Below are positions 5,751 through 22,743 of a stretch of 64,000 nucleotides of DNA, piece by piece. The notes under the pieces were generated by a model, which searched no databases, was not told the origin of the DNA, and saw only the letters and a program-made list of their open reading frames with translations. The position numbers were made by a program, and so were the translations under genes. Numbering within the stretch: the first letter of the stretch is position 1; every line of letters starts with the position of its first letter. Location of the stretch: positions 193,199 through 257,198 of the forward strand of contig CAVPCZ010000012.1 in assembly GCA_963702445.1 (NCBI GenBank), in the 5' to 3' direction. Origin of the DNA: Ignavibacteriota bacterium. GTDB lineage: Bacteria; Bacteroidota; Ignavibacteria; UBA10030; UBA6906.

Positions 5751-7249
5751 GGGGTATCGAGCGAAGAGCTCATCGGGGGCAACACGGGCACATTTCCGTG
5801 CCGGTACACCGCCGTCGACGCGAGGATCTTCTTCAGCATTCTGACAGCGGCCAGGACGTGCGGTCCTTTGTTAAGCATCACGCAGTCGGCTCTTCCGGCC
5901 TGGGCCGCATCCAGGACCTCCGCCCGCGAGGGAATCCCCTTCCTGGTCAGTTTTTCCAGAACCTGCGTGGCAATGAATACCGGCATGTGCGCGGCCCCGG
6001 CACACATGAGGATTTCTTCCTGGATGCGCGCCAGCTGTTCCCATCCGCATTCCACCGCGAGATCGCCGCGCGCGATGAGCAGCCCGGTTGCCGGACGCCG
6101 CATTGCCGCCATAACGATGGCAGTCAGACGGCGGTAGGCCTGCTGTGTCTCTATCTTCACTACGACGCCGAGGTGCCCGCCATGTATCCGTCGCAGTGCG
6201 GCGTGCAGGGCGTGAACGTCATCCGGGCCGTGGACAAATGAGAGGCTGACAATGTCGGCATGTTCGGCGACGAAATGCAGGTGACGCAGGTCAGCCCGGG
6301 TGAGCCCGGCGGGAAGGCGGCGGGTCATCGGAAGATTGATCCCTTTGTCCGCCCGCAGGTTTGCAGAAACACCTGCCGTGCGGAGGATTTTTACGTGCAT
6401 CGTTCCGGGAGAGACGCTCTGAACCACGCCCTCAATGATTCCGTCATCAAAGAAGATGGGATCACCGCTCCGCACACAGGAGAAGATCCCGGGAAAAGAG
6501 CACGAAATGTGGCCCGGCCGGAGACAGCGGCCGCGGCGGTCCTCCACCGCGCGTGCACCCGGAAGGGGTACGCGGTGGATCACCAGTTCGTCTCCGGGTT
6601 TGAGGGGGATTCTCTCCTGCCGCCGGCCGCCGGAGGTCTGGGCGATCGGCCCGGTGCGCACTTTGGGGCCGCCCAGATCCATCAGCACCCGGCACGGGCG
6701 TCCCGTCCGGCGGGACGCATTCCTCACCTGTGATATCAGCGGCTTCCATGTCTCCGGGCCACCCATCGCACAATTGATCCGCACCACGTTCATCCCCCCG
6801 GTCATCAGCGCCGCGATACGTCCCGGGTCTTCCAGGATGTCATCCGGGAGGGTCACCATGATGCGCGTTCCCTTCACGCGTCGCCCGCCGAAGAGATCCG
6901 CGGTATGCTGCGCGCGCAATGCGTTGGCCCGGCGGACCGAAAGATGGGCAGGGCCGGTTTCCGGTTTCACGCCGAGAGTGAGCTGCAGGAGGTGCCGGAT
7001 ATTCCGCACTGTGGCTTCCACGTGGGAAACGGCATTCCCGGGGGATGAAATACCCAGTTCTTCAAGGCGTTGCTGCATCTGCCGCATATCCTGCTCGCGC
7101 AGGGCGACGTACGCAAGGAGATTCCGTGCGCTTTCTGCATATGACGGATGCACACCCTTCAAAATCCGGGCGTGCCGGCGCTCGAGTTGTGCCGTCCTCT
7201 CCAGAATGCGTTCCAGGCGGCTGAGTATGGTTGTGGTTCCAGGCATCAT
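5747..7249 (-). CDS. Pyruvate-kinase-family protein with a ~125-aa N-terminal helical extension and no C-terminal regulatory domain
   Basis: PK barrel motifs are present: RIMVTLP, GMNVVRINCAMG, MDLGGPKVRTG, KGINLP, DIVSLSFV, VVKIETQQA, IARGDLAVECG, PVFIATQVLE, PSRAEVLD. The protein ends right after the barrel (MLNKGPH...). Confidence 0.7.
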   Translation of the reverse strand: MMPGTTTILSRLERILERTAQLERRHARILKGVHPSYAESARNLLAYVALREQDMRQMQQRLEELGISSPGNAVSHVEATVRNIRHLLQLTLGVKPETGPAHLSVRRANALRAQHTADLFGGRRVKGTRIMVTLPDDILEDPGRIAALMTGGMNVVRINCAMGGPETWKPLISQVRNASRRTGRPCRVLMDLGGPKVRTGPIAQTSGGRRQERIPLKPGDELVIHRVPLPGARAVEDRRGRCLRPGHISCSFPGIFSCVRSGDPIFFDDGIIEGVVQSVSPGTMHVKILRTAGVSANLRADKGINLPMTRRLPAGLTRADLRHLHFVAEHADIVSLSFVHGPDDVHALHAALRRIHGGHLGVVVKIETQQAYRRLTAIVMAAMRRPATGLLIARGDLAVECGWEQLARIQEEILMCAGAAHMPVFIATQVLEKLTRKGIPSRAEVLDAAQAGRADCVMLNKGPHVLAAVRMLKKILASTAVYRHGNVPVLPPMSSSLDTP

Positions 7250-7303: not shown

Positions 7304-8707
7304 CTACACCGTCCGCGAGAAGACCGGTTTTGTTCCGGTCATCTTCTCAAGGTAGGCATCGAAGCACATGGCGATGTTGCGCAGCAGCAGCCGTCCCGAT
7401 CCGACGATGGAGATGCGTTCATCCGACAGCTCCACCAGCCCGTCGACCTGCAGGGGGCGGAGGGCGGCAAGGGAAGAGGCAAAGTACTCCTCGAAACGGA
7501 TGCCGAATTTCCGCTCAACGGAAGGGATATGCAGATCGAGATCGCACATCAATCGCATGATCACATGCTTGCGGATGTGGTCATCCTCCGTCATCCGGTA
7601 CCCGATGTGTGTGGCAAGCCGGCCCCCATCGAGTGCCCCGTAGTATTCGGGAAGCTGTTTGGCATTCTGTGCGTACACATCCCGGAAGTGGCTGATCGAC
7701 GACATGCCGAAGCCGTACAGATCCGCGCCGGAGCGGGTGGAATACCCCTGGAAATTCCTGTAGAGCGTCCGTTCCGCGCGTGCGACGGCCAGTTCGTCAT
7801 CCGGTTTCGCAAAGTGATCCATGCCGATGTACTCGTAGCCGCTGGACGTCAGCAGCTCAATGGCCATCTTCAGTATTTCCAGCTTCTGTTCCGGGGACGG
7901 GAGGTCATCCTGATTGACCAGTTTCTGGTGCGGCTTGAGCCAGGGAACATGTGCATAGTTGAACACCGCAATGCGGTCGGGATTGTACGAGATGACCGTC
8001 CGGATGGTCTTTTCAAATGATGCGACCGTCTGGTGCGGGAGGCCGTACATCAGATCGAGGTTGATGCCGTTGAATCCGAGCTCGCGCGCCCAGAGGTACA
8101 CCTGGCGTGACACCCATTCCGGCTGGATCCGGTTCACCGCCGTCTGTACCTGCAGTTCAAAATCCTGCACTCCCATGCTCATGCGGTTGAATCCCGCATC
8201 GCGGAGCGCCTCCATGTGGGTCCGGTCAAGTTCGCGGGGATCCACCTCGACGCTTGCCTCGGCATCCGGCGCAAAACGGAACGCCTCCCGGAAAGCCCCG
8301 GCGATATCGAGGATTTGCGCAGGCGACAGGTGGGTGGGCGTGCCGCCGCCCCAGTGCAACTGCGTGACCCGCCGCCCCGGGGCGATCAGCGGAGCGACAA
8401 GCGCGATTTCCTTTTTGAGGTATTCAAGGTATTCCTCGATCCGCCGGCGGTCGCGCGTGACCAGCATGGTGCAGCCGCAAAAATAGCAGAGCGTGTCACA
8501 AAAGGGAAAATGGACGTACAGGGAAATATCCGAAACCACACCGGGGGAATTTGTTGCAGCAATTTCGCTCTGGAAGTCACCGGCACCGAACGTGGGCTGG
8601 AAGACCGGAGCGGTCGGATAACTGGTATACCGCGGTCCCGGCCGGTCGTATTTTTGAAGAAGGCGGATATCAATGTTCGAGAACGGGCGTCCCATGTATT
8701 CCTCCAT
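7304..8707 (-). CDS. hemN: Oxygen-independent coproporphyrinogen III oxidase (radical SAM)
   Basis: N-terminal YDRPGPRYTSYPTAP and the radical-SAM cluster motif YVHFPFCDTLCYFCGC. The length and C-terminal HemN domain fit. Start taken at ATG 8707 (alternative 8695); the ORF-track start at 8827 adds non-conserved sequence. Confidence 0.9.
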   Translation of the reverse strand: MEEYMGRPFSNIDIRLLQKYDRPGPRYTSYPTAPVFQPTFGAGDFQSEIAATNSPGVVSDISLYVHFPFCDTLCYFCGCTMLVTRDRRRIEEYLEYLKKEIALVAPLIAPGRRVTQLHWGGGTPTHLSPAQILDIAGAFREAFRFAPDAEASVEVDPRELDRTHMEALRDAGFNRMSMGVQDFELQVQTAVNRIQPEWVSRQVYLWARELGFNGINLDLMYGLPHQTVASFEKTIRTVISYNPDRIAVFNYAHVPWLKPHQKLVNQDDLPSPEQKLEILKMAIELLTSSGYEYIGMDHFAKPDDELAVARAERTLYRNFQGYSTRSGADLYGFGMSSISHFRDVYAQNAKQLPEYYGALDGGRLATHIGYRMTEDDHIRKHVIMRLMCDLDLHIPSVERKFGIRFEEYFASSLAALRPLQVDGLVELSDERISIVGSGRLLLRNIAMCFDAYLEKMTGTKPVFSRTV

Positions 8708-8763
8708 CACATTGAATAACGTAGCGAGATTCGCGCGGAATTGCAACCCTCGCCCGTGTCGCG

Positions 8764-9228
8764 CTACTGCACCATGATGGTGGGACTCACCTCGACAATC
8801 GAGGCGATGGAATTCGCCACGAGGCAATGCTTCTCCGCCTCGCGCAGTATATCATGGACCTCCGATTCTGCGACCGAGCTGCAAACGGCGATGGTCGGGA
8901 AGATGACAATACGCGTGAACCGGTAGTCACCCTCGACATACTCCAGAACGCCGTTTGCATGACTGCGGTAACTCAGTATGGAGATGTTCCGCCTCTCTGC
9001 AAACGCCAGGAAGGTGTTCATGTGGCACATCTCCACCGACCCCACGAACATCTCTTCCGGTGTCCAGGCGTTTCGTTCGCCTTTGAACTCGGGCGGACTG
9101 GATATCCGGATGGTGGGTTTTCCTTCGGAGGAAAGTGTCCCGGACCGTCCTTCGATCCACACCGTGCTGGTCTTGTACGTGAAGGACTTGGTCCGGAGAG
9201 CTGTCTGTCGGGTTGTTTCCATGGTCAT
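8764..9228 (-). CDS. OsmC/Ohr-family peroxiredoxin-like protein
   Basis: The 154-aa size and pattern match the OsmC family (PEEMFVGSVEMCHMNTF ... EKHCLVANS, the two conserved Cys regions). ATGA overlap with the leuD-like stop. Confidence 0.7.
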   Translation of the reverse strand: MTMETTRQTALRTKSFTYKTSTVWIEGRSGTLSSEGKPTIRISSPPEFKGERNAWTPEEMFVGSVEMCHMNTFLAFAERRNISILSYRSHANGVLEYVEGDYRFTRIVIFPTIAVCSSVAESEVHDILREAEKHCLVANSIASIVEVSPTIMVQ

Positions 9229-9731
9229 GTCGTTGGGGCGTGCGCGCGCTGCAGAAGGCGTTTCCGGGTATACGCAATGAGGCCGCCGGCGTCGAGAATC
9301 GCCTGCCGGGCGGGGGGCAACGGCTCGATATGCGCCGAGGATCCCGTCGTGGTATTGATGATCCTGTCCTTTTCGACCACCAGATCATCCCCCTCGCCGG
9401 CCGTCAGATCGGGCGCCACAACCAGAGGCAGACCGAGGTTGATGGCGTTCTGGAGAAAGATCCGGGCGATGCTCTTCGCGACAATGGTGAGCCCGTGTCC
9501 CTTGAGCGTGGAGACGGCCTGTTCCCGGGATGAACCGCAGCCGAAGTTGCTGCCGGCGAGGATGATACTGCCCGGCGGGATCTGCTTCGCCTTCAACTTC
9601 CCGTTCAGGACGGCATCGTCTGCAAAGGCAAACTGCGGCGTTTCAGAAGGCAGGACTGTGGCCATATAACGGCCCGGATAGATGACGTCCGTGGAGATGT
9701 CATCGCCTATGCAATAGACAACCTGCGCCAT
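9225..9731 (-). CDS. Aconitase-superfamily dehydratase small subunit (LeuD/HacB type, short ~165-aa form)
   Basis: DISTDVIYPGRY and GSNFGCGSSREQA are the swivel-domain motifs of LeuD-like subunits. Confidence 0.85.
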   Translation of the reverse strand: MAQVVYCIGDDISTDVIYPGRYMATVLPSETPQFAFADDAVLNGKLKAKQIPPGSIILAGSNFGCGSSREQAVSTLKGHGLTIVAKSIARIFLQNAINLGLPLVVAPDLTAGEGDDLVVEKDRIINTTTGSSAHIEPLPPARQAILDAGGLIAYTRKRLLQRAHAPTT

Positions 9732-9733
9732 GA

Positions 9734-11026
9734 TTACGCGTCTCCTTTCCTCGGGTCGGTGATCATGCCCGTGAGTGCAGACGCCGCAGCGACCGCGGGT
9801 GAGCAGAGAAAGACTTCCGATTGGGGGTTTCCCATCCGGCCTTTGAAATTCCGGTTTGTGGTGGACAGCGCCACTTCTCCGTCGCCGAGCGCGCCTTCAT
9901 GGACACCGAGACAGGGGCCGCAGCCGGGATTCATCACCACGGCGCCCGCGCGCATGAGATCGGCGATATATCCCTGTTCGAGCGCACGCTGGTAGATCCG
10001 GCCCGAGGCGGGAAAAACCAGCATGCGTGTTTCCCGGGCGACCTTTTTCCCGCGCACAATATCCGCTGCGGTGGCAATATCGTCCAGCCTGCCGTTGGTA
10101 CACGATCCGATCACCACCTGGTTGACGCGTTTGCCGAGCACCTGGCCCACCGGCTTGACATTGTCCACCGTGTGCGGACAGGCCACCTGGGGCTCCAGGG
10201 TCGAGACATCGATCGGGATCACCTTTTCATACACGGCATCCGGATCCGGAAGCACCGGGTCGACCGGATCCTTCACTCCCGCTTCTTCGCGGAGATAGTG
10301 AAGTGTTTCCCGGTCGGCGGGAACGATGCCGGAGGTCGCGCCGGCTTCCACGGACATGTTGCAGATCACGAGACGCCCGGAGGTCGGCATCGCGTCGATT
10401 GTTTCCCCGTGAAACTCAATCACGCGGAAATTCGCGCCCTGTGCCGTAAGCAGACCGATCAGATGAAGAATCAAATCCTTGGGTCCGACCATGGGCCTGA
10501 ACGATCCGCGAACCTCAATCTTGATCGTGGCGGGCACTTCCACATTGACCGCGTGCCCCAGCGTCCAGACGCTGGCCATCTCTGTGGCGCCGATGCCGAA
10601 GGCAAAAGCCCCGAGAGCCCCATGGCTCGTGGTGTGGGAGTCCGTTCCGACAACCACCGCGCCGGGACGGACGTAGCCGCTTTCGGGCAGGATCTGGTGG
10701 CAGATTCCGCCGAGGTCTCCGCGGATGTCGTGAAACTTGCTTATCGTATGGCGCGCAACAAAATCGCGCACTTTCTTCTGGTTCGTGGCGGTTTTCGGCG
10801 ATTCCGCGGGCACCCGGTGGTCGAAAATGATGGCGACCCGCGAGGAATCCCACACCTTCGGCTCGAGCCCGGTGTCCCTGTAGATTTCGAGAAACTGATT
10901 GATCACCAGCGCGGCATTCTCATGCGACATCGCCAGATCCACCTTCGGCTCCAGCACGTCGCCGGCCCGGACAGAGTGCAGACCGCTTGCGCGGGCCAGG
11001 ATTTTTTCAACAACGGTCATGCCCAT
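9734..11026 (-). CDS. Aconitase-superfamily dehydratase large subunit (LeuC/HacA type)
   Basis: VGTDSHTTSHGALGAFAFGIG, GSCTNGRLDD and NRNFKGRMG are the Fe-S cluster Cys-containing motifs of isopropylmalate and homoaconitate dehydratases. Confidence 0.88.
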   Translation of the reverse strand: MGMTVVEKILARASGLHSVRAGDVLEPKVDLAMSHENAALVINQFLEIYRDTGLEPKVWDSSRVAIIFDHRVPAESPKTATNQKKVRDFVARHTISKFHDIRGDLGGICHQILPESGYVRPGAVVVGTDSHTTSHGALGAFAFGIGATEMASVWTLGHAVNVEVPATIKIEVRGSFRPMVGPKDLILHLIGLLTAQGANFRVIEFHGETIDAMPTSGRLVICNMSVEAGATSGIVPADRETLHYLREEAGVKDPVDPVLPDPDAVYEKVIPIDVSTLEPQVACPHTVDNVKPVGQVLGKRVNQVVIGSCTNGRLDDIATAADIVRGKKVARETRMLVFPASGRIYQRALEQGYIADLMRAGAVVMNPGCGPCLGVHEGALGDGEVALSTTNRNFKGRMGNPQSEVFLCSPAVAAASALTGMITDPRKGDA

Positions 11027-11044
11027 GGTGGTCCTTTGATGTTC

Positions 11045-12238
11045 CTAGACGATCTTCTGTTGTTTCAGTTCCGCCACCTGTTCAGGAGAATAGCCCAGCT
11101 TCCCGAGCACCTCCGCGGTGTGCTCTCCCAGTGCGGGCGGCGGGGTCGACACCACGCCCGGCGTCTTCTCGAATTTTGCGGTCAGATTGAAGAGCGGAAT
11201 GTCACCGATGCCGTCCGCATGCACCGTGGCGAAGGTCTCGCGGTGCGCCACCTGCGCCTGAACCATCGCCTGGTGGAGTGTGAGGATGGCGCCCGAAGGC
11301 ACATCGCGCCCGTTCAGCGCTGCCACCCAGTAGGCGGTCTCCTGCTCTTTGAGTTTCGCCTCCAGCAGCGGCGTGAGGGCCTTCCTGTTCTTCTTCCGTG
11401 TATCGCGCTCCTGAAACCGCGGGTCGGTCTTCAGTCCGGGAACGCCCAGGACGTCGGCCACCGCTTCCCATTGTTCCTGTTTGTTGGCAGCGATATTGAT
11501 GAACCCGTCTTTCGTGGTGAAGACACCGGAGGGTGCCGCGGTGAAGTTGTCGTTTCCCATCAGCACCGGTTGCTGGCCGCCGATCATCAGGTTGGCCACC
11601 ACCCATCCCATCAGCGGCATGATCGAATCGAGCAGCGCCACATCGATCGCCTGTCCTTCGCCGGACCGTTCACGCCAGTAGAGCGCGGCCATGATCGCAA
11701 AGGCGGCGTTGAGTCCCCCGACGGTGTCGCACACCGGAAATCCGGCGCGCAGGGGACTCAGCCGTTCATCGCCGTTGATCGCCATTTCGCCGCTCAGTCC
11801 CTGGATGATCTGGTCGTATGCGGGCTTGAGCGCATCGGGGCCCGTCTGTCCGAAGCCCGAAATTCCGCAGTACACGAGGCGGGGGTTGATGGCGCGAAGC
11901 ACGTTGTACCCCAACCCGAGCCGCCCCATCACATCGGGGCGGAAGTTCTCGACGACCACATCGGCGCTGCCGGCCAGTTTCTTGAAGATGTCTTTGCCTT
12001 CGGGGGCTTTCAGATTGAGCGTCAGCGACTTCTTGTTGGCGTTCTGCGCAAGAAAGCTGGTGCCCATGAGCATCCTGTTGTATTCCGGCACGCATCCGAG
12101 TTTCCGGGCGAGGTCGCCGTCGGTCGGATTTTCCACTTTGATCACCTCCGCGCCCAGGAGCGCGAGGTGCAGCGTCGCAAACGGGCCCGAAAGCACGTTC
12201 GTCAGGTCCAGCACGGTGATTCCCTGAAGGAGTTTCAT
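11045..12238 (-). CDS. Family III (CaiB/BaiF) CoA-transferase
   Basis: N-terminal LQGITVLDLTNVLSGPFATLHLALLGAEVIKVE, and a catalytic-Asp region typical of family III transferases (LSGEMAINGD...). Confidence 0.85.
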   Translation of the reverse strand: MKLLQGITVLDLTNVLSGPFATLHLALLGAEVIKVENPTDGDLARKLGCVPEYNRMLMGTSFLAQNANKKSLTLNLKAPEGKDIFKKLAGSADVVVENFRPDVMGRLGLGYNVLRAINPRLVYCGISGFGQTGPDALKPAYDQIIQGLSGEMAINGDERLSPLRAGFPVCDTVGGLNAAFAIMAALYWRERSGEGQAIDVALLDSIMPLMGWVVANLMIGGQQPVLMGNDNFTAAPSGVFTTKDGFINIAANKQEQWEAVADVLGVPGLKTDPRFQERDTRKKNRKALTPLLEAKLKEQETAYWVAALNGRDVPSGAILTLHQAMVQAQVAHRETFATVHADGIGDIPLFNLTAKFEKTPGVVSTPPPALGEHTAEVLGKLGYSPEQVAELKQQKIV

Positions 12239-13158
12239 GTATGGCGTCCGTGGGGGATCCCCCCCGTTTTGTATACCGTTCCCGGCATGTCACGCTGGAA
12301 CCATTCCGCGAAGCTGTGCGCCACATCGAGAAGTCCGTGCAGGTGCACGTCGTTCCTGATTCCCATGCGCTGCCACATATGCACGAGGTCCTCCGTGCAG
12401 ACGTTGCCTCCCGCGACTTTGGTGAACGGGCAGCCGCCGAGGCCGGCAATGGACGACTCAAATGTGCTCACCCCGGCCGACATCGCGGCGTGGCAATTCG
12501 CCAGGCCCATGCCGTAGGTGTTGTGGAAGTGGCAGGCCAGCTCGAGGCTGTCGTCGACAGCCAGCACGGATTCGTACATGCGTTTCACCCGGTCGGGTGA
12601 TGCATGGCCTGCGGTATCGGCAAGGCTGATCTGGCGGAGGCCCGCGCCGGCGTACCGCCGGACGATTTCGAGAACCCGGTCCTGCGGCACCGCCCCTTCG
12701 AACCCGCACCCGAAAGCGGACTGGACCGACACCTGCACCTGTTTCTTCTCCGCGATCGCCCGCTGTGCGGTGGCGATGATCCGTTCCGTCGCGTCGGCGA
12801 CGGACATACCGGTGTTTTTCATGCTGTGGGTTTCGCTGGCGGACACGCCGAGGCAGTACATCTGCACGCCGCAGGCAAGACCGCGCTCCAGTCCCTTCTC
12901 ATTCAGCACGAGTGCCGAGAGGATCACCCCCGGCGGGACGGCGTTCGGTGCCGAGAGGATCTGAAAGAGACGGTCGGTGTCCGCCATTTGCGGCACTTTG
13001 ACCGGGTGCACAAAGGAACCGACCTGGATGATATCGACCCCGGTGGCGGCGAGGGCGCGGATCCACTCCGTTTTCTGTTCCGTCGGAACGGTCTGCTTTT
13101 CCATCTGCAGCCCGTCCCGGAGTCCGACTTCATGCAGAATCCGTGTCCCCGTACTCAT
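12235..13158 (-). CDS. HMG-CoA-lyase-family (DRE-TIM) acyl-CoA lyase
   Basis: HEVGLRDGLQ, GSFVHPVKVPQMAD, HFHNTYGMG and GLGGCPFTKVAGGNVCTEDLV closely follow the HMG-CoA lyase pattern. The ATG at 13158 overlaps the upstream stop by ATGA; I reject the 124-aa N-terminal extension in the ORF track. Confidence 0.85.
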   Translation of the reverse strand: MSTGTRILHEVGLRDGLQMEKQTVPTEQKTEWIRALAATGVDIIQVGSFVHPVKVPQMADTDRLFQILSAPNAVPPGVILSALVLNEKGLERGLACGVQMYCLGVSASETHSMKNTGMSVADATERIIATAQRAIAEKKQVQVSVQSAFGCGFEGAVPQDRVLEIVRRYAGAGLRQISLADTAGHASPDRVKRMYESVLAVDDSLELACHFHNTYGMGLANCHAAMSAGVSTFESSIAGLGGCPFTKVAGGNVCTEDLVHMWQRMGIRNDVHLHGLLDVAHSFAEWFQRDMPGTVYKTGGIPHGRHT

Positions 13159-14273
13159 AGCCGGTCCGCGATGGCCTCCGCCATCTCCATGGTGCTGTTG
13201 CCGCCCCCCATGTCGTAGGTCCGGATCCGCCCTTCCTTGATCACCGCTGCCGTTGCCTGTTCGATTCGCGTCCCCTTCTCCGTCTCGCCGAGCCAGTCCA
13301 GCATCATCTTTGCGGCCAGAATTGTGGCGATGGGATTCACCTTGTACTGGCCCGCGTATTTGGGCGCGGAGCCGTGTGAGGGTTCGAAGACCGCAAGGCG
13401 GTGACCGATATTGCCCGAACACCCGAAGCCGAGTCCGCCGACCATCTGGGCCGCAAGATCCGAGATGATATCCCCATAGAGATTCGGCGCGACAAGCACG
13501 TCGTAGCTGAAAGGGTTCTTGAGGAGCCACATGCAGATGGCATCCACGTTGGCTTCGTCGAAATGGATTTCCGGGTATTCACGCGCGACTTTCTTCGCCT
13601 CGTCCAGGAACAGTCCGTCCGTTGCGCGGACGACATTGGCTTTGTGGACGATCGTCACCTTGCGGCGATGGAATTTTCTGGCGAACTCGAACGCCGCGCG
13701 CACGATGCGGTCGGATCCCCGTTTCGTGTTGATCTTGCAGGATACCGCGTACTGGTCACCCGCAAGATCCCGGAACGCCCCGAAGGGTTTCGAAAGCCTG
13801 ACAAGCACCTCGGAGAGTTCCCTGGGGACGGGGTTGAATTCCACCCCGGCGTACAGGTCTTCCGTATTCTCGCGGAACACGACGAGGTTGATGCCGTCTT
13901 TCAGGTTCAGCGGGTTGCCCCCGTACGCCTTGCAGGGCCGCAGGCAGATATACAGATCGAACATCTGCCGCATGCGGACGATCGGCGACCGGTAGATCAG
14001 TCCTTTCCCCTGGAGATCCGGCACCAGTTCGCTTTCCGCCGCCTTCACGGGCTTTGACGTGATTGCGCCGAACATGGCCGCGTTGACCCGGCGCAGGAGC
14101 TCAATGGTGCGCTGGGGAAACGCATCACCTTCCTTGCACCAGAACTCCCATCCGATGTCGCCGTGGATATATTCGGCATCCAGCTGAATCCTGTCGAGGA
14201 CGACACGTGTGGCGTCCATGACATCTTTCCCGATGCCGTCCCCCGGCAGCCAGGCGATCGTGTATTTGCTCAT
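13155..14273 (-). CDS. Isocitrate/isopropylmalate/homoisocitrate dehydrogenase-family beta-decarboxylating dehydrogenase (IDH-like loop)
   Basis: LPGDGIGKDV, YRSPIVRMRQMFDLYICLRPC (closer to the IDH xRSLNVALRQ/DLYxCLRP pattern than to LeuB), VFRENTEDLY, NLYGDIISDL. Confidence 0.85.
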   Translation of the reverse strand: MSKYTIAWLPGDGIGKDVMDATRVVLDRIQLDAEYIHGDIGWEFWCKEGDAFPQRTIELLRRVNAAMFGAITSKPVKAAESELVPDLQGKGLIYRSPIVRMRQMFDLYICLRPCKAYGGNPLNLKDGINLVVFRENTEDLYAGVEFNPVPRELSEVLVRLSKPFGAFRDLAGDQYAVSCKINTKRGSDRIVRAAFEFARKFHRRKVTIVHKANVVRATDGLFLDEAKKVAREYPEIHFDEANVDAICMWLLKNPFSYDVLVAPNLYGDIISDLAAQMVGGLGFGCSGNIGHRLAVFEPSHGSAPKYAGQYKVNPIATILAAKMMLDWLGETEKGTRIEQATAAVIKEGRIRTYDMGGGNSTMEMAEAIADRL

Positions 14274-14303
14274 CGTGGTCCGTTTGCTCCGTATTTGTTC
14301 CGG

Positions 14304-14555
14304 TCAGTCCGCCATTCCCGTCTCCAGGTCCCTCTGGAGCTGCAATTCGTCGAGTTCTTTCCGGAGGGTGTCGGCATGCCCCTGTTCCATGGCGGCCAGC
14401 CCGAGGAGCATGCGTTGTGTATGGGCATTTCCCGCATGGTCGGCGGCAAGCCGATAATACTCGCGCGCCTCCACCTCGTCGGCGATGGCCAGCTCGAGGA
14501 TGTCCTGCAGGGACATATCGTTCCAGTTAAGCTTGTCGTGCGGTGGGTGTGCCAT
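14304..14555 (-). CDS. Small ferritin-like/rubrerythrin-type two-helix protein
   Basis: The 83-aa ORF has ELAIADEVEAREYY and AAMEQGHADTL (E...E and ExxH spacing as in diiron four-helix-bundle halves). Weak, motif-level call. Confidence 0.4.
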   Translation of the reverse strand: MAHPPHDKLNWNDMSLQDILELAIADEVEAREYYRLAADHAGNAHTQRMLLGLAAMEQGHADTLRKELDELQLQRDLETGMAD

Positions 14556-14558
14556 GGG

Positions 14559-14807
14559 TCATGCGAAGCTGTCGTTGATTCGGTTTGTCACATTGAGCTT
14601 CACGAGAAGAATTTCGCGCTTCTCGCGCAGGAGCCGCAACCCTCTCTCCCTCTCGGCGATCAGGGTTTCGAGGAGCTCCTTCACATCGGGGTAGTCGCAC
14701 CGGGAGGCATACCCTCGGTACTCCTGAATCGTCTGTTCCTCCCGATGTTCGGCCACTTCCAGTGCGTTACAGAGCCCGTTGCACGAATGCACGCATTGGG
14801 AATCCAT
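14559..14807 (-). CDS. Small hypothetical protein, Cys-rich N-terminus plus a helical ExxH-like segment
   Basis: The 82-aa ORF sits 3 nt upstream of the previous small ORF. It contains CVHSCNGLCNALEVAEHREEQTIQEY. Its coding status is supported only by position in the operon and by its charged, non-shadow-like composition. Confidence 0.35.
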   Translation of the reverse strand: MDSQCVHSCNGLCNALEVAEHREEQTIQEYRGYASRCDYPDVKELLETLIAERERGLRLLREKREILLVKLNVTNRINDSFA

Positions 14808-14875
14808 ACGTTCTCCTCGCTCTTCTGTCTGTCTCTCTCCCTGCCGGCCACGTGTCCGGCCCGCGGCGCTTCCGC

Positions 14876-15427
14876 TCAGGCCATTGCCGGCGACCCGGCC
14901 AGCTCGATACCTCTCCGCAACGCCTGTTCATTGAGGGGAAGCAGGTGATGGTACCGTTCGGGGAGCACTTTGTGCATCGCCTTCATGATGGAGTCGATAT
15001 CCACCACGTGCGTACGTTCAATGAAGGCGCCCAGCACGATCATATTCAGGACTTTGGTATTCTTCATTTTCACCGCTTCTTCACCCGCGGCGATCGGGAC
15101 AATCCGTATGTCCGTACGGGTGGGCGGCGCGATGATGCTCGTGGAATCGTACAGCAGGACCCCGCCGGGCTTCACCGCTTTTTCGAACTTCTCCAGCGAG
15201 GGCTGGTTCAGCGCGATCACCGTGTCGAAGACCGTCACAATCGGCGAGCTGATGCGGGAGTCCGAAACAATGACGATGCAATTGGCCGTGCCCCCCCGCA
15301 TTTCTGGTCCGTACGACGGCATCCAGGTGACTTCCTTCTTCTCAATCATGCCGGCGTATCCCAGAGCCATCCCCATGGAGAGGACCCCCTGTCCGCCAAA
15401 CCCGGCGATCAAAAGTTCATGCGTCAT
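14876..15427 (-). CDS. 2-oxoacid:ferredoxin oxidoreductase, gamma subunit
   Basis: The N-terminus LLIAGFGGQGVLSMG and the ~180-aa size are typical of Kor/Por/Vor gamma subunits. Confidence 0.88.
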   Translation of the reverse strand: MTHELLIAGFGGQGVLSMGMALGYAGMIEKKEVTWMPSYGPEMRGGTANCIVIVSDSRISSPIVTVFDTVIALNQPSLEKFEKAVKPGGVLLYDSTSIIAPPTRTDIRIVPIAAGEEAVKMKNTKVLNMIVLGAFIERTHVVDIDSIMKAMHKVLPERYHHLLPLNEQALRRGIELAGSPAMA

Positions 15428-15471
15428 GATGTTGTCCTTGCCATTCGTCGTTCAGCGGTGATGATCCGTGC

Positions 15472-16257
15472 TTATTTTGGCGTGCGGAGATCACCGGTCG
15501 GGTAGAGCGGCAACATATTCTCGACGAGCCACTTGTTCGACTGTACCGGCGTCATTTTCCATCCGGAGGGGCAGTTGGACACCACCTCCACGAAACATGT
15601 TCCTTTGTGTTCTTTCTGGTACTGGAACGATTTCGTAATCGCCTTCTTCAGCTGGCGCACCGCGTTGGGCGTGTGGACCGTCTGGCGTGTCACGTAGGCC
15701 ACTCCCGGCAGCAGGGCGATCATGTCGGCGATCTTCAGGGGGAACCCCGCCGTTTCCACAGTGCGCCCTTCGGGTGACGTGGACGTCTTCATCCCCAGCA
15801 GGCTGGTGGGCGCCATCTGTCCGCCGGTCATGCCGTAGATGCCATTGTTGATGAACAGCATGAGGATGTTTTCCCCGCGATTGCAGGTGTGGATGGTTTC
15901 GGCGGTCCCTATCGCGGCGAGATCACCGTCACCCTGATAGGAAAAGACATACCGGTCCGGCAGGAGACGTTTCACGGCGGTGGCCACCGCGCTGGCGCGC
16001 CCGTGGGCGGCTTCCTGCATGTCAATGTTCATATAGTGATAGGCAAACACGGAGCAGCCGACAGGTGCGACACCGATGGTGCGCTCCGCGATCTGCAGTT
16101 CGTCGAGCACTTCCATAAGCACGCGGTGGACGACGCTGTGTCCGCACCCCGGACAGTAGTGAAAGCGCGCATCGGTCAGCGTGTCGGGTCTTTCGTACAC
16201 ACATTCCATCGCTTCCGTCTCACCTGCGGCCGGTTCCTGAACGAGTTCCTGTGCCAT
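15472..16257 (-). CDS. 2-oxoacid:ferredoxin oxidoreductase, beta (TPP-binding) subunit
   Basis: YCPGCGHS and the TPP motif SYQGDGDLAAIG...NNGIYGMTGGQ. The ATG at 16257 lies immediately after the alpha-subunit stop. Confidence 0.9.
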   Translation of the reverse strand: MAQELVQEPAAGETEAMECVYERPDTLTDARFHYCPGCGHSVVHRVLMEVLDELQIAERTIGVAPVGCSVFAYHYMNIDMQEAAHGRASAVATAVKRLLPDRYVFSYQGDGDLAAIGTAETIHTCNRGENILMLFINNGIYGMTGGQMAPTSLLGMKTSTSPEGRTVETAGFPLKIADMIALLPGVAYVTRQTVHTPNAVRQLKKAITKSFQYQKEHKGTCFVEVVSNCPSGWKMTPVQSNKWLVENMLPLYPTGDLRTPK

Positions 16258-16258
16258 G

Positions 16259-17353
16259 TCAGTTCGCCTCCACGGGGTGTTGCACACTGCGTATCGCCAG
16301 CCGGTCGAGGGCCGTCACCACTTCCTCGGGGGATGGGATGACGCCCCCCATACGGCCGGTAAAATGCACCGGAGCGCGTCCTTCAACGGCGAGACGGACA
16401 TCCTCCACCATCTGACCCGCATTCATTTCCACCACGAGCACACCGCGGAGCCGGCCGGCGAGTGCGCGCAGCACATCGGACGGATAGGGCCAGAGCGTGA
16501 TCGGACGAAGGAGGCCGACTTTCTTCCCCCCGGCGCGGGCCAGCTCCACAGCGCGGTGGGCAATGCGCGCGGCAAGCCCGAATGCGACGATCAGGTATTC
16601 CGCATCGTCGGCTTCAACGAGTTCATACCGCACCTCGCGTGCCGCGATCGTGCGGAATTTCTCCTGGAGCCTGAGGTTGACCTGTTCCATCTGTTCGGCC
16701 AGCATATGCAGCGAGGTGATAACATTCGGCGCGCGGTCCTTCGGTTTGCCGGTGGTCGCCCAGGGTTTGGGCGGAATATGGTCCGCCGGTGTGTAGTCGT
16801 GGTATTCGACCTTTTCCATCATCTGTCCCAGAGCGCCGTCGGAGAGTATCAGGACAGGCGTGCGATACCGGTCGGCCAGATCAAATCCATCAAAGACAAA
16901 ATCCGCCATTTCCTGCACACTGGAGGGCGCAAGCACCACGAGATTATAGTCACCGTGGCCGCCTCCCTTGACGGCCTGAAAATAATCGCCCTGCGAAGAC
17001 TGGATGGTGCCGAGTCCGGGTCCGCCGCGGCTCACGTTCACCAGCAGACAGGGCACCTCCGCGGCGGCGATGTAGGAGATCCCTTCCTGCATAAGGCTGA
17101 ACCCGGGACTGGAGGAAGAGGTCATCACGCGTGCACCGGCGCCGCCGGCGCCGTACACCATATTGATGGACGCCACTTCACTTTCCGCCTGCAGGACAAT
17201 CATCCCCCGCTTTCGTCCCTCGTCGGTGAGGTACTCGAGAATTTCGGATTGTGGCGTGATGGGATAGCCAAAATAGGCCTGGCAGCCGGCGCGGATTGCC
17301 GCTTCCGCCAGCGCCTCGTTGCCTTTCATGAGTCTGATGTCACCCACGGTCAT
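16259..17353 (-). CDS. 2-oxoacid:ferredoxin oxidoreductase, alpha subunit
   Basis: [30 protein letters not shown] is the conserved N-terminus of OFOR alpha subunits. Confidence 0.9.
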
Positions 17354-17652
17354 TTCCTTTCATCGGCAATGGTCACCGTAATGTTCTCAGTCACATTGGT
17401 GATACGCGCGACGGGCACCTTTTCCTTCTTCTTTGTTTCGCGGTACACGGTAATGACGGCATCCGGACACACCAGCGCACAGTTGGTGCACCCCGTGCAG
17501 TTATCCTGGATCAGGACCGCATAGTGGTAGCCCTGCGCGTTGATCTTCGGCGATAATTGCAGACTCCCCTGCGGGCACGCTTCGATGCAGAGCTCACAGC
17601 CTTTGCAGGTATCAACATCGAACTTCACTTTTCCTTTGGCCATCGACTCCAC
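17350..17652 (-). CDS. 2-oxoacid:ferredoxin oxidoreductase, delta subunit (2x[4Fe-4S] ferredoxin)
   Basis: Two CxxCxxCxxxCP motifs ([12 protein letters not shown] and [12 protein letters not shown]). ATGA overlap with the alpha subunit. Confidence 0.85.
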
Positions 17653-17697: not shown

Positions 17698-19026
17698 TTA
17701 CCGGGTGCTGTCGAGTGAATGTTGAAGATCGGTGATGATGTCCTCCGGCTTCTCCAGTCCGATGGCAAGCCGCACACCGCCGGGATCCATGCCGTTGGCG
17801 ACCTGTTCTTCGGCGGGAATTGCCGAGTGGGTCATTGACCCGGGATGTTCAATCAGGGTGCGGATATTGCCGAGGCTCACCGCGAGGGTCACGCAATACG
17901 CTTCCTGCGCGATGTGATTGATGAAGCGTTCGGCCCGTTTGAGTGCATCCGGCGGGTTGGCGCCCTTCATCACAAAATAGATCATCGAACCGGGCGCAAA
18001 GTTGCCGTCGAAGTCCCGCATCTGCCGCCGGGCAAGTTCGGCCTGGGGGAACGACGGAAGACCCGGGTAGCAGACGGATTCGATTTCCGGACGCTGCTGC
18101 AGAAATTCCGCGACCACCTGTGCGGTCACCTGCATCTGGCGCATGCGGGTAGCAAGCGAGGGAAGACCCACCACGAGGACGGGCCATGCGCTCTTTGCCG
18201 ACAGCACGCCGCCAAAGTCCTTCCGGTACAGCATCAGCTGATCGTAGCTCCACCGCGGGCCGATCACCACCCCGCCGATATCCGTTCCGAAGCCGCCGAT
18301 GGCTTTGGTGAGTGAATGCACCACAAAGTCGATGCCCAGAGAAATCGGCCGCTGGCAGAAGGGCGTCGCGAAGGTGCTGTCGACCACCGTGTAGATGCGG
18401 TCTTCGGGAGCGCGCCCGGCATTCGCCTGTAGGGCGATATCCGCAATCCGCTTCAGATCGGTCAGGCCCATGGTGGGATTGACCGGCGATTCCATATAGA
18501 GAACGCGCGTGTTGCGGGTGATGGCTTTTGCCACCTCATCCGGCTTGAGAAAGTCGACGAACTTCACGCCGATTTTGAGGCGTGGATACCAGTTCATCAG
18601 CAGCGAATAGGTGCAACCGTACAGCGTGCGGTGCGCCACGATTTCACTTCCGGTCCCGGTAAGGGTTCCCAGTACACCGGAGATGGCGGCCATACCGCTG
18701 GCAAACGCCACGGCAATATCGCCCCCCTCGGCGTACGCCAGGTTCTCCTCGAGCATGTCCTTGTTCGGTTCCCCCAGACGGTCATAGATATAGATGGGGG
18801 CCTTCGTCTTGACATTCACCTCGTCGCTGCGATGCGCGAACTCCGTGAAACCCTGTGCCCCCCGCTGGGCGCTGTCAAGCCGGAATGTTGCCGAGGCGGA
18901 AATCGGCGGCAAGAGATGATGACTGTAATCCCAGAGAGGGTCGTCCATCCGGCCGTAGATCAGGTGGGCTTCCACCGAATGCCGGTGTGCTTCCTTCTTG
19001 GGCGGTGTGGTGTGTTCTGGCTTCAT
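17698..19026 (-). CDS. Cys/Met-metabolism PLP-dependent enzyme (methionine gamma-lyase, cystathionine or O-acylhomoserine sulfhydrylase family)
   Basis: Family pattern YxRxxNP-like segments and the PLP-lysine motif HSLTKAIGGFGTDIGG. Substrate not assignable from the sequence. Confidence 0.78.
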   Translation of the reverse strand: MKPEHTTPPKKEAHRHSVEAHLIYGRMDDPLWDYSHHLLPPISASATFRLDSAQRGAQGFTEFAHRSDEVNVKTKAPIYIYDRLGEPNKDMLEENLAYAEGGDIAVAFASGMAAISGVLGTLTGTGSEIVAHRTLYGCTYSLLMNWYPRLKIGVKFVDFLKPDEVAKAITRNTRVLYMESPVNPTMGLTDLKRIADIALQANAGRAPEDRIYTVVDSTFATPFCQRPISLGIDFVVHSLTKAIGGFGTDIGGVVIGPRWSYDQLMLYRKDFGGVLSAKSAWPVLVVGLPSLATRMRQMQVTAQVVAEFLQQRPEIESVCYPGLPSFPQAELARRQMRDFDGNFAPGSMIYFVMKGANPPDALKRAERFINHIAQEAYCVTLAVSLGNIRTLIEHPGSMTHSAIPAEEQVANGMDPGGVRLAIGLEKPEDIITDLQHSLDSTR

Positions 19027-20096
19027 CGGATATACTCTCCATGCTCCTGGCGCGGTAAGAGAAATTCATTGATGGGACGACGCGGAGTCGGCACCGGCTC
19101 CGCCAGTGAATACCCGATTCTCAGCAACAGTTGGGGCCAGACATGCAACCCGAGAAGTCTCTTGAGTTCAAGGCGCAGGGCGGGAACCTGCACAGGCATG
19201 TTGAAGTAGCTGTGCTGGATCCCTTCCGCGGTCAGCAGAAGGAGCATCCGTTCCAGGAATTCCCCCGCCGAAAGCCAGTGGGGAACGGTGTCCTCGCCGG
19301 CAATGGTGATCAGGCCGGGAGCATCAACGCAGAGGTTCTTGTCATGTGCGGCACGCAGTTTTCCCGGATCAATCATGCGGGTCGCCCGGGGCACGAACGG
19401 AGCCACGTTTTCATCAATACCCGCCACTTCTCCCCTCATGCCGTCGGGCTGAGCGCTGTCGCCGGACCGGAGCCACTCCGCCACATCGCGGCGGTACGCC
19501 GGATCCGCCAGAAGCAGGCGATCGGCCTGTGCCACCAGGCCGGCAACGGCATCGTTCAATTTTCCGTCGGTGGACGCAGACACGACGGTCTCCCCGGAGA
19601 CGGCCAGATCCTGCACCTGACGGATGACCGACGAGGGGACCCGGGAAACCAGAAAAGGTTTCCTGTTCGTACGCCTCCGGGTCAACTGGGGAAAGAGGGC
19701 GCTCAGTCCGGCACCGCCGTGGACCGATGCTTCGCCCGGCAGGAGGTTGACGAACGCCAGGGGTTCTTCGCTCGATCCGCTCTGGTTGTACACCACCTCG
19801 CATCCGAAGTCGAAAAAGGCGGCGGCAACCCGGAGATTCATGACCGCGGCGCCGATGCTCATCAGGAGCTCACGCCCGGCAGGATCGGCAACCGGCAGAC
19901 GGCGCGTATAATCCCCGTAGAGTTCCACACCCTCAACACTGACCCGGAAATGCCAGGGTTGTGTGTTGAAGGTGGACGGCGCAAGCACGGCGTAACGGAG
20001 CAGAAACAGAAACTGCTCCTCCACGCCCCCCTCCGCCGGAAACTGTCCCGCTGACGGCAACGTGTACGGTCTGCCCGTGGTAACCACCGGTTTCAC
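19023..20096 (-). CDS. Acg-type tandem nitroreductase-fold protein
   Basis: The 357-aa size, RYAVLAPSTFNTQPWHFRV and a second nitroreductase-like half match the Acg/putative NAD(P)H nitroreductase family. Confidence 0.6.
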   Translation of the reverse strand: MKPVVTTGRPYTLPSAGQFPAEGGVEEQFLFLLRYAVLAPSTFNTQPWHFRVSVEGVELYGDYTRRLPVADPAGRELLMSIGAAVMNLRVAAAFFDFGCEVVYNQSGSSEEPLAFVNLLPGEASVHGGAGLSALFPQLTRRRTNRKPFLVSRVPSSVIRQVQDLAVSGETVVSASTDGKLNDAVAGLVAQADRLLLADPAYRRDVAEWLRSGDSAQPDGMRGEVAGIDENVAPFVPRATRMIDPGKLRAAHDKNLCVDAPGLITIAGEDTVPHWLSAGEFLERMLLLLTAEGIQHSYFNMPVQVPALRLELKRLLGLHVWPQLLLRIGYSLAEPVPTPRRPINEFLLPRQEHGEYIR

Positions 20097-22581: not shown

Positions 22582-22616
22582 TCAGTCTCCGAAAGTGTGT
22601 TGCGGCTAAATGAGGG

Positions 22617-22631: not shown

Positions 22632-22710
22632 TGGAAATCCCCTTGAAAACCACGAAAATCACGTTCTGGAAGCCGTTTTAAGGGTTTCCTATCGTGTAAG
22701 AACCAGGGTG

Positions 22711-22728: not shown

Positions 22729-22743
22729 TGGTTTGCAGGAGTG

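Follow-up and report, generated by a model that had tools for sequence, protein, structure and literature searches.

A 64,000-nucleotide stretch of the genome of an Ignavibacteriota bacterium (GCA_963702445.1, contig CAVPCZ010000012.1), referred to here as the window, carries on its minus strand five adjacent genes for a beta-decarboxylating dehydrogenase (IsoDH), a lyase of the 3-hydroxy-3-methylglutaryl-coenzyme A (HMG-CoA) lyase family (HMGL), a family III CoA-transferase (CoAT) and the two subunits of a LeuC/LeuD-type dehydratase. This core reappears, nearly unaltered, among uncultured members of at least four bacterial phyla and is not a chance neighbourhood. It appears to be a self-contained and reversible route by which a 2-oxoacid with an uncharged side chain is lengthened or shortened by a C2 unit. 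The reading we prefer, to which we give a probability of roughly 40%, is a reversible, thioester-conserving (R)-citramalate route that interconverts 2-oxobutyrate with pyruvate and acetyl-CoA.

The substrates, the CoA donor and the direction of the following scheme are those that we infer. The dehydrogenase would carboxylate 2-oxobutyrate with CO2 and NADPH to (2R,3S)-3-methylmalate, and the LeuCD-type iron–sulphur (Fe-S) dehydratase would turn this by way of citraconate into (R)-citramalate. The family III CoA-transferase would then use succinyl- or acetyl-CoA to form (R)-citramalyl-CoA, which the HMGL-type lyase would split into pyruvate and acetyl-CoA. The net reaction would be 2-oxobutyrate + CO2 + NADPH + acyl-CoA <-> pyruvate + acetyl-CoA + NADP+ + acid. 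The thioester would be kept because a CoA-ester lyase and a CoA-transferase take the place of the hydrolysing synthase CimA or LeuA. The thioester-conserving conversion is, by estimate rather than computation, close to isoenergetic; concentrations would therefore set its direction, and the formation of 2-oxobutyrate from pyruvate and acetyl-CoA would be equally permitted chemically.

The five genes lie in the order in which they would be transcribed. First is the dehydrogenase of the Iso_dh family (13155-14273; 372 aa; PF00180, E = 6e-86), followed by the lyase (12235-13158; 307 aa, with its ATG at 13158; PF00682, E = 3e-42), the CaiB/Frc-type CoA-transferase (11045-12238; 397 aa; PF02515, E = 3e-118), the large dehydratase subunit of the archaeal LeuC/HacA type (9734-11026; 430 aa) and the small subunit of the archaeal LeuD type (9225-9731; 168 aa). 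An initial annotation, made from the letters of the window, had described the genes as tightly packed with ATGA overlaps at 12235-12238 and 13155-13158, and both overlaps can be read directly in the sequence; a third (9225-9228) couples LeuD to the downstream gene for an OsmC-family protein. The motifs that it quoted, EVGLRDGLQ, SFVHPVKVPQMAD, GLGGCPF and YRSPIVRMRQMFDLYICLRPC, are all found in the translations, each of its family assignments is borne out by Pfam and NCBIfam, and an open reading frame (ORF) check recovered all 11 of its minus-strand ORFs in place.

The lyase was used as the query in one scan of the GTDB species genomes, which gave 465 relatives; the best 80 loci were taken with flanks of up to 10 kb, and presence of the core was scored by tblastn with the window proteins. 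Flanks were sufficient to judge the core at 58 of the 80 loci and were wide at 42. A colinear, same-strand IsoDH-HMGL-CoAT-LeuC-LeuD core is present in 50 of the 58, with 60-98% amino acid identity and with median gaps between genes of tens of bases. The lyase and CoA-transferase genes adjoin each other in all 80 loci, and this pair is all of the core that lies within 10 kb at the eight exceptions, several of which come from Acidobacteriota or Aminicenantes metagenome-assembled genomes (MAGs). The best 80 loci are all from MAGs, labelled Ignavibacteriota/Ignavibacteria, Bacteroidota, Acidobacteriota (Vicinamibacteria, Aminicenantes and Thermoanaerobaculia), Calditrichaeota (Calditrichota) and Verrucomicrobiota, and the hosts are uncultured bacteria of soil, sediment and wastewater. 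The genes beyond the core vary between lineages, and the five genes therefore behave as a mobile, self-contained unit. The nearest relative of the window, locus L007 of an ‘uncultured Bacteroidetes’ MAG, shares the entire 20-kb array at 84-98% identity.

Protein searches with the lyase draw the boundary of the family sharply. One search gave 7,624 matches with E <= 1e-40, and identity to the query is at least 67% for each of the best 120. Among 1.84 billion representatives, the lyase clade comprises P0121 (66% identity, 447 bits, full-length) and P0122 (51%, 318 bits), beyond which scores fall to at most 243 bits and identities to at most 45%, these being canonical HMG-CoA lyases. A divergent copy, with a lyase 51% identical to that of the window, retains the complete IsoDH...HMGL-CoAT...LeuC-LeuD locus and every motif. 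None of the five core proteins reaches an NCBIfam equivalog cut-off (LeuB, LeuC, LeuD, isocitrate dehydrogenase, homoisocitrate dehydrogenase, homoaconitase or the named CoA-transferases), and only subfamily models are passed. By sequence, then, each is distinct from the canonical LeuB, LeuCD, isocitrate dehydrogenase (IDH) or HMGL. No leuA-like gene was seen in the inspected locus maps, and clustering of the ORFs of 86 loci revealed no ilv, leuA, cimA, prp, mcm, gltA or lysine-pathway genes among the clusters and neighbours examined. About 30 larger ORFs scanned in the rest of the window include no canonical leu, ilv or tricarboxylic acid (TCA) cycle genes; cytochromes, S-adenosylmethionine-cycle genes and housekeeping genes are found there. 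The proposal of the initial annotation that an HMGL-type enzyme and a CaiB-type CoA-transferase stand in for LeuA or CimA is thus upheld by the synteny across phyla, by invariant residues and by the lack of leuA in the inspected maps.

A few loci carry inserts within the module that leave the core order undisturbed (L054:1055-2320, L006:10971-12740, L089:6395-9175 and L089:11403-11873). Their products are a protein of no family, a GlcNAc 2-epimerase-like protein with a Por_Secre_tail (type IX secretion system) domain, a second Por_Secre_tail protein and a response regulator.

The lyase belongs to the HMGL family, passing NF004283 with 276 bits (cut-off 246), and is 37-45% identical to canonical HMG-CoA lyases; its closest solved structures are the HMG-CoA lyases 6nds, 1ydo, 2ftp and 2cw6. 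Aligned with these, it keeps R41, D42, H233, H235, C266 and N275 (human numbering). Three substitutions, E72Q, Y167S and S169Q, occur in at least 97% of 86 aligned sequences. E72, the Glu of the DRE triad, is likewise Gln in the divergent copy at locus L089. The motifs RDGLQME, (I/L)Q.GSFV, SVQSAFGCG, LADTAG and GLGGCPFT are found in at least 97% of 60-86 aligned sequences or are absolute. Alignment of the module lyases with the solved enzymes reveals no gain of an invariant Arg or Lys able to bind an additional carboxylate. The lyase is predicted to be an (R)-citramalyl-CoA (2-alkylmalyl-CoA) lyase.

The CoA-transferase matches PF02515 over residues 4-374, as expected of a full-length family III member. 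Its best solved relative is the human succinate-hydroxymethylglutarate CoA-transferase 9br6 (254 bits) and its top NCBIfam match is succinate-glutarate CoA-transferase, with no substrate-level equivalog passed. The motif CDTVGG, taken to carry the catalytic Asp, is invariant among the aligned module sequences. The enzyme is predicted to be an acyl-CoA:(R)-citramalate (2-alkylmalate) CoA-transferase.

These data bear on the simplest alternative, that an ordinary leuB/leuCD set lies by chance beside an ordinary HMG-CoA lyase and CoA-transferase of leucine or HMG catabolism. NCBI subfamily models would indeed name the proteins HMG-CoA lyase and LeuC/LeuD-family, and JGI labels the lyase orthologues hydroxymethylglutaryl-CoA lyase. 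A fixed gene order with ATGA overlaps in at least four phyla is hard to reconcile with accidental juxtaposition, as is the position of the lyase and CoA-transferase genes between those for the dehydrogenase and LeuCD. A canonical relative of the lyase, P0131 (44% identical), sits in a leucine-catabolism cluster with carboxyltransferase, enoyl-CoA hydratase and class I CoA-transferase subunit genes, whereas neither methylcrotonyl-CoA carboxylase nor methylglutaconyl-CoA hydratase context was seen in the window or in the inspected locus maps. The lost Glu of the lyase triad and the non-canonical but invariant specificity residues of the dehydrogenase and LeuD, which also fail their equivalog models, point the same way. 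As the five genes travel together, carry invariant residues and lack leuA in the inspected maps, we regard unrelated neighbours as very improbable.

The dehydrogenase falls below every NCBIfam equivalog cut-off: AksF2 (336 against 540 bits), IDH (295 against 510), LeuB NF002898 (269 against 393) and TIGR00169 (192 against 353). In an alignment with Escherichia coli IDH, E. coli LeuB and one NAD-dependent IDH, the catalytic Arg/Tyr/Lys/Asp set is intact, and of the specificity positions (E. coli IDH numbering) S113 and V116 are kept and N115 is replaced by Ile. Asn115 is present in every IDH compared, and Ile in all module orthologues aligned across the region. Where the homoisocitrate dehydrogenase (HICDH) of Thermus thermophilus has its carboxylate-binding Arg85, the dehydrogenase has Val, and it has Ile at the HICDH Ile84 position. 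The segment YRSPIVRMRQ is found in all orthologues whose called ORF spans the region except for one, in which F and L are substituted. A solved variant of HICDH, 3ah3, reportedly evolved towards isopropylmalate, carries R85M, Y86A and S72I and illustrates how a hydrophobic residue at the Arg85 position goes with the use of an alkylmalate. The invariant Arg117 was also considered as a binder of a distal carboxylate and seems unlikely in that role, since helical periodicity would put it away from residues 115 and 119.

With E. coli IDH the dehydrogenase has in common the segment DLYICLRP, one insertion of the E. coli IDH type and the NADP-type motif APKYAGQ.KVNP, and HGSAPKYAGQ.KVNP is conserved in at least 97% of the 60-86 aligned module sequences. 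The segments APKYAGQYKVNP and ..TYD.. align with the E. coli IDH residues K344, Y345, V351 and Y391, which are NADP determinants, as is R292, where the dehydrogenase has Lys. The remark in the initial annotation that a loop of the enzyme looks more like IDH than LeuB is accordingly right for the shared motifs, the insertion and the NADP-type residues, and does not extend to the specificity positions, which resemble those of alkylmalate enzymes. Ser113 and the NADP-type cofactor residues of IDH are kept, but Asn115 is lost and all IDH equivalogs are missed; in place of the NAD-type SAPDIAG of LeuB the motif is SAPKYAG, and the LeuB equivalogs are missed too. We read the IDH-like traits as a sign of NADP(H) dependence and not of isocitrate specificity. 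The protein is predicted to be an NADP-dependent 3-alkylmalate (3-methylmalate) dehydrogenase/reductive carboxylase, and its NADP-type residues would fit reductive carboxylation.

The dehydratase subunits show the same combination of family membership and divergence. LeuC passes the subfamily models NF001614 (546 bits) and TIGR02086 (516 bits) and fails the HacA and LEU2 equivalogs, and LeuD passes the LeuD/DmdB subfamily TIGR02087 (122.6 bits, cut-off 109) with its equivalogs failed; TIGR02083 (441 against 611), TIGR00170 (238 against 560), TIGR02084 (110 against 246) and TIGR00171 (40 against 116) are among the models not passed. The best PDB matches are the large and small subunits of the Methanocaldococcus jannaschii isopropylmalate/citramalate isomerase (4nqy, 389 bits, and 3vba). 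In LeuC, GSCTNGR and CGPCLG, taken as the Fe-S cluster cysteine motifs, are invariant in the aligned module sequences, and GCGSSREQA is conserved in the dehydratase as well. The LeuD loop YPGR[YF]MATVLP is near-invariant in 60 sequences, PGR being followed by Y or F, or in one sequence by Cys. Its specificity stretch is the uncharged YMAT, compared with YLRT in the M. jannaschii homoaconitase and YLVY in the isopropylmalate/citramalate isomerase of the same organism. Arg26 of HacB is thus invariantly replaced by Ala, with Thr kept at the Thr27 position, and the HacA and HacB equivalogs are missed, all of which argues against a homoaconitase.

Upstream of the core lie the genes of a four-subunit 2-oxoacid:ferredoxin oxidoreductase (OFOR): delta (17350-17652), alpha (16259-17353), beta (15472-16257) and gamma (14876-15427), all on the minus strand; their Pfam domains are POR_N/PFOR_II, TPP_enzyme_C, POR and Fer4. 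These had been called korDABG-type. The four-subunit OFOR is confirmed, but the alpha subunit passes the VorB subfamily model NF005507 with about 530 bits (cut-off 399) and fails KorA/OorA (NF006412, about 318 against 411; NF007206, 225 against 579), so ‘kor-type’ is valid at the superfamily level only. The OFOR adjoins the core in 19 of the 42 wide-flank loci, lying upstream in the same orientation at some and downstream in convergent orientation at others, and it is associated with the module without being part of the invariant core.

Three independent proteins, the dehydrogenase, LeuD and the lyase, therefore point, on the basis of alignments and published mutational work, to a substrate with an uncharged side chain, and the VorB-type alpha subunit lends weaker support. 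Together these argue against two readings in which the side chain is charged. In the first, suggested in the initial annotation as ATP-independent citrate cleavage, the OFOR would act as 2-oxoglutarate synthase, the dehydrogenase as NADP-IDH and LeuCD as aconitase; citryl-CoA formed by the CoA-transferase would be split by the lyase into oxaloacetate and acetyl-CoA, giving a reductive or an energy-conserving oxidative TCA variant without ATP-citrate lyase. The motifs shared with E. coli IDH, the single insertion and Ser113 speak for it. Citryl-CoA is HMG-CoA with a carboxylate in place of the methyl group, the CoA-transferase is nearest to succinate-hydroxymethylglutarate and succinate-glutarate CoA-transferases, and among solved structures OFOR alpha is nearer 2-oxoglutarate enzymes than pyruvate enzymes. 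Set against these are Ile in place of the Asn115 of every IDH compared, a LeuD loop with no Arg at the homoaconitase Arg26 position (nor at the position that we would align with aconitase Arg580), the lack of a new invariant cation in the lyase, the alpha scores for VorB over KorA/OorA, the failure of all IDH and aconitase equivalog models and the lack of an OFOR in more than half of the wide-flank loci. Citrate cleavage is disfavoured by these data and we consider it improbable.

The second would convert 2-oxoadipate reversibly to 2-oxoglutarate and acetyl-CoA through homocitrate, either as a lysine-related route that avoids glutaryl-CoA dehydrogenase or as a thioester-saving start to the aminoadipate pathway. 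The top NCBIfam matches of the dehydrogenase and of LeuD are indeed AksF2 (methanogen homoisocitrate dehydrogenase, 336 bits) and HacB2 (120 bits), Ile and Thr stand at the HICDH Ile84 and HacB Thr27 positions, and the CoA-transferase is matched best by a succinate-glutarate enzyme. The residues that define specificity, HICDH Arg85 and HacB Arg26, are however invariantly Val and Ala, all of these equivalog cut-offs are missed by wide margins and no lysine-pathway genes were seen in the inspected locus maps. A homocitrate route is accordingly highly improbable.

The main rival to the citramalate route keeps the whole architecture and changes the alkyl group. Acting on 2-isopropylmalate and 2-oxoisocaproate, the module would be a thioester-conserving leucine branch, in which a VorB-type OFOR makes 2-oxoisovalerate from isobutyryl-CoA and 2-oxoisovalerate and acetyl-CoA yield 2-oxoisocaproate; reversed, it would serve leucine catabolism, taking 2-oxoisocaproate to acetyl-CoA and 2-oxoisovalerate and thence to isobutyryl-CoA. 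Its specificity residues are hydrophobic, OFOR alpha passes a model named for the 3-methyl-2-oxobutanoate (2-oxoisovalerate) dehydrogenase VorB, the best LeuCD relatives use isopropylmalate as well as citramalate, and the small Ala and Thr of the LeuD loop could mean a larger substituent. An acyl-CoA:acetate-type transferase gene lies beside the OFOR in nine loci. Ignavibacterium album, a cultured relative, has no genes for Val, Leu or Ile biosynthesis except aminotransferases (PMC3362086), and salvage from isobutyrate or valine would therefore be useful in the lineage. Against the isopropylmalate reading, the LeuB, LeuC and LeuD equivalog models all fail, and the dehydrogenase has an NADP-type cofactor site, an uncommon feature among isopropylmalate dehydrogenases. 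The lyase would need an alkyl pocket larger than that of HMG-CoA lyase, and we know of no precedent for a 2-isopropylmalyl-CoA lyase. The module is also present in Acidobacteriota and Verrucomicrobiota, phyla that usually carry canonical leuABCD. On balance we think this reading unlikely, while granting it real weight.

Between the two, (R)-citramalate and 2-oxobutyrate are favoured for four reasons. First, the sole biochemical precedent for the logic of lyase plus CoA-transferase acts on (R)-citramalate. Second, immediately upstream of the OFOR lies the gene for a pyridoxal phosphate (PLP) enzyme (17698-19026, minus strand; 442 aa; TIGR01328, 319 bits, cut-off 550) that is clearly nearest to methionine gamma-lyases: these make up all of its top 19 PDB matches (274 bits), the next class scoring 212. 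Methionine gamma-lyases release 2-oxobutyrate, and the enzyme is a predicted source of it. Third, a gene for a 445-aa protein of the acetyl-CoA hydrolase/transferase family, resembling butyryl- and 4-hydroxybutyrate-CoA-transferases, lies between the PLP gene and OFOR delta in the nine loci just mentioned (L006, L013, L040, L052, L053, L059, L067, L079 at 2388-3725, and L084; there is none in the window) and fits a propionyl-CoA/2-oxobutyrate node. The VorB-type OFOR would link this node to propionyl-CoA and the PLP enzyme would link it to methionine and homocysteine. Fourth, (R)-citramalyl-CoA and (S)-HMG-CoA would share the C3 methyl group and its spatial arrangement; for this reason the methyl pocket need not change and only the carboxylate arm would have to be re-fitted. 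E72Q and S169Q would then be changes around the metal site rather than signs of an enlarged alkyl pocket, in agreement with citramalyl-CoA.

Several observations weigh against the citramalate reading. No rule at the level of residues distinguishes a methyl group from isopropyl or a longer alkyl chain, and the Ala and Thr of the LeuD loop, smaller than the Val and Tyr of M. jannaschii, could equally accommodate a larger one. The LeuD of Pyrococcus horikoshii (YNLT), which we assume may serve lysine biosynthesis, is likewise without the Arg, so its loss in the module is no absolute proof. The dehydrogenase retains Ser113 and the E. coli-IDH-like features described above, and we know of no precedent for the reductive carboxylation of 2-oxobutyrate by such an enzyme. 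The subfamily name VorB leaves the substrate range of the OFOR unfixed, and, as noted, the solved structures nearer to its alpha subunit are those of 2-oxoglutarate enzymes, not of pyruvate enzymes. The PLP gene may relate only to the OFOR, because it adjoins the OFOR and not the core, and lies upstream of it in only 13 of the 42 wide-flank loci.

Of the two directions of the citramalate route, shortening of 2-oxobutyrate to pyruvate and acetyl-CoA is favoured over elongation. A CoA-transferase with a lyase is the usual catabolic signature, the dehydrogenase looks NADP(H)-dependent, and, at the concentrations found in cells, acetyl-CoA condenses unfavourably with a ketone unless hydrolysis accompanies the step. 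The reverse direction would be a possible and cheaper supply of 2-oxobutyrate for isoleucine. A more ambitious version, which we hold to be quite unlikely, has the OFOR run reductively, so that propionyl-CoA, CO2 and reduced ferredoxin would give 2-oxobutyrate and the module would carry this on to pyruvate and acetyl-CoA, a B12-independent funnel that also assimilates CO2.

The remaining genes of the locus are of less certain relevance. The complete order, 5' to 3' on the minus strand, is PLP enzyme, OFOR delta-alpha-beta-gamma, an 82-aa ORF, an 83-aa ORF, IsoDH, HMGL, CoAT, LeuC, LeuD, OsmC and HemN. The initial annotation noted two tiny ORFs ahead of the core. Both are present, and one needs a better name: the 83-aa ORF (14304-14555) is a rubrerythrin/ferritin-like half domain (PF02915, E = 1.5e-9) that is found in about 19 related loci. 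The other (14559-14807; 82 aa) has no Pfam or NCBIfam match. It follows OFOR gamma in both locus arrangements. That it does so even at loci with a convergent OFOR makes it a possible accessory subunit of the oxidoreductase, or a protein that protects it. The two small proteins align weakly, at about 29% over 45 residues, which is not significant, with Glu-rich stretches similarly placed. Downstream, the OsmC-family gene (8764-9228; PF02566 seen in orthologous loci) and hemN, for an oxygen-independent coproporphyrinogen oxidase (7304-8827), follow LeuD in about 18-22 related loci, each of which also has the upstream OFOR. Further on, a 500-aa pyruvate-kinase-like ORF (5747-7249, minus strand) matches the long-form model NF011314 in two stretches with 530 bits (cut-off 642), is kept in L007 only and is followed by a gene for a major facilitator superfamily (MFS) transporter.

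Upstream of the PLP gene, the region 19023-24246 (minus strand) encodes an Acg-family FMN nitroreductase-like protein, a small single-cluster ferredoxin (20093-20365; PF13370, Fer4_13, E = 7e-16), a CcmF/NrfE-type haem lyase and a CxxCH-rich cytochrome. The ferredoxin, kept upstream in about 17 loci, is a possible redox partner of the OFOR, and about 13-17 related loci keep the ferredoxin-CcmF-cytochrome block in synteny. At 29009-34146 (minus strand) there are two large DmsE-like multihaem cytochromes, one of them fused to a formate-dehydrogenase-gamma-like b-type domain; haem lyase and cytochromes suggest that the organism has the means to transfer electrons extracellularly or in the periplasm. 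The genes for adenosylhomocysteinase (ahcY) and methionine adenosyltransferase (metK) (38157-40622, minus strand) lie about 20 kb from the PLP gene, to which a link through homocysteine or methionine turnover is possible.

The only other neighbours to recur among the 86 clustered loci are regulators (an Rrf2-family protein, a sigma-54 activator and a histidine kinase), genes for a methyltransferase and a polyferredoxin, and the acetyl-CoA hydrolase/transferase-family gene. Rrf2-family regulators, sometimes in two copies, flank the module in the convergent-OFOR loci L038, L045, L048, L054, L058, L061, L064 and L077, and in loci of this arrangement the sigma-54 activator and histidine kinase are encoded on the far side of the OFOR, a possible sign that the module has regulators of its own. 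A GltD/NfnB-like protein (Fer4_20, Pyr_redox_2 and extra Fer4 domains) is encoded near the module at L038:2404-4410, and its ORF cluster also occurs in L032; as a candidate NADPH:ferredoxin oxidoreductase, it could couple the ferredoxin- and NADP-dependent steps. A scan for promoters and terminators gave sites at background level and defined no operon boundary. An 898-aa ORF on the plus strand (9821-12517), opposite the genes for LeuC and the CoA-transferase and part of that for the lyase, is apparently an artefact of high GC content. Related loci have similar antisense ORFs simply through conservation of the sense genes, and an uncritical ORF caller would prefer this one to the real genes.

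To our knowledge, 2-oxoacid chain elongation in leucine, isoleucine, lysine and coenzyme B synthesis has always been described with a hydrolysing synthase and hence an irreversible first step. Were a lyase and CoA-transferase to replace the synthase as proposed, the sequence would become reversible and one thioester, or about one ATP equivalent, would be saved per turn. Shortening of 2-oxoacids would become possible, opening new anaerobic routes for 2-oxobutyrate and propionate or for leucine carbon, or else cheaper amino acid synthesis. The lyase is currently annotated as ‘HMG-CoA lyase’ and NCBI subfamily models would name its neighbours LeuC/LeuD-family and isocitrate/isopropylmalate dehydrogenase-family, so metabolic reconstructions of the lineages that carry the module are probably wrong at this point. 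If the reductive funnel were true, anaerobes would have a previously unrecognised means of feeding the carbon of propionate, methionine and threonine, together with two CO2, into central metabolism; if propionyl-CoA were regenerated from pyruvate, a new carbon fixation cycle, cheap in ATP and comparable with the reductive TCA cycle, would be built around it. With five soluble enzymes and substrates that are commercially or enzymatically accessible, the hypothesis is directly testable.

No description of this operon was found in the literature, the nearest idea being a review's theoretical, indirect route to (R)-citramalate, given as possible through (R)-citramalyl-CoA lyase (EC 4.1.3.46) and succinyl-CoA:(R)-citramalate CoA-transferase (EC 2.8.3.20) (PMC8307300). 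In Chloroflexus aurantiacus this pair of enzymes, which we liken to the module in its described function, also combines a family III CoA-transferase with a lyase that interconverts a 2-hydroxy-2-methyl-dicarboxyl-CoA with acetyl-CoA and a 2-oxoacid. The Chloroflexus lyase of Friedmann and colleagues (2007) reportedly belongs to the HMG-CoA lyase family, its gene adjoining that of the class III transferase. As far as is known, the pair stands alone, with neither a LeuCD-type dehydratase nor a decarboxylating dehydrogenase in its operon. NCBIfam has no model for the Chloroflexus proteins (Ccl/Sct).

The carbon-skeleton chemistry of the proposed route is that of the CimA-LeuCD-LeuB citramalate pathway of methanogens, Geobacter and Leptospira. 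That pathway is driven by hydrolysis, whereas the module has no CimA/LeuA-type synthase, would keep the thioester through its lyase and CoA-transferase and is reversible by estimate; its dehydrogenase also differs in the NADP-type residues and one IDH-type insertion. The pair formed by succinate-hydroxymethylglutarate CoA-transferase (SUGCT) and HMG-CoA lyase (HMGCL) resembles the proposed module in that CoA transfer activates a 3-hydroxy-dicarboxylate from which acetyl-CoA is then cleaved off. The module lyase departs from HMGCL in E72Q, Y167S and S169Q and in its low identity to canonical lyases. HMG cannot serve as a substrate for an aconitase-type dehydratase and hence does not explain the conserved LeuCD and dehydrogenase.

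Activation of a 2-hydroxy-polycarboxylate as its CoA ester followed by retro-Claisen cleavage is common to the citrate cleavage systems of the reductive TCA cycle (ATP-citrate lyase, and citryl-CoA synthetase with citryl-CoA lyase) and to citrate lyase CitDEF. Like the module, these systems have as neighbours a decarboxylating dehydrogenase and an oxidoreductase that passes electrons between 2-oxoacids and ferredoxin. Their proteins come from families unrelated to those of the module, however, and the specificity residues of the module argue against tricarboxylates. The coenzyme B elongation system of methanogens (AksA, AksD/E and AksF) shares with the module the archaeal-type LeuC/LeuD-like and Iso_dh-family enzymes and C2 elongation. 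It differs in that its condensing enzyme is a hydrolysing synthase instead of a lyase, and the module misses the Aks equivalogs and lacks the carboxylate-binding arginines. All of the enzyme families, the citramalate pathway, the Chloroflexus lyase/transferase pair and the SUGCT/HMGCL pair were thus known already; what is new is their fixed combination in one widespread operon with conserved specificity residues of its own.

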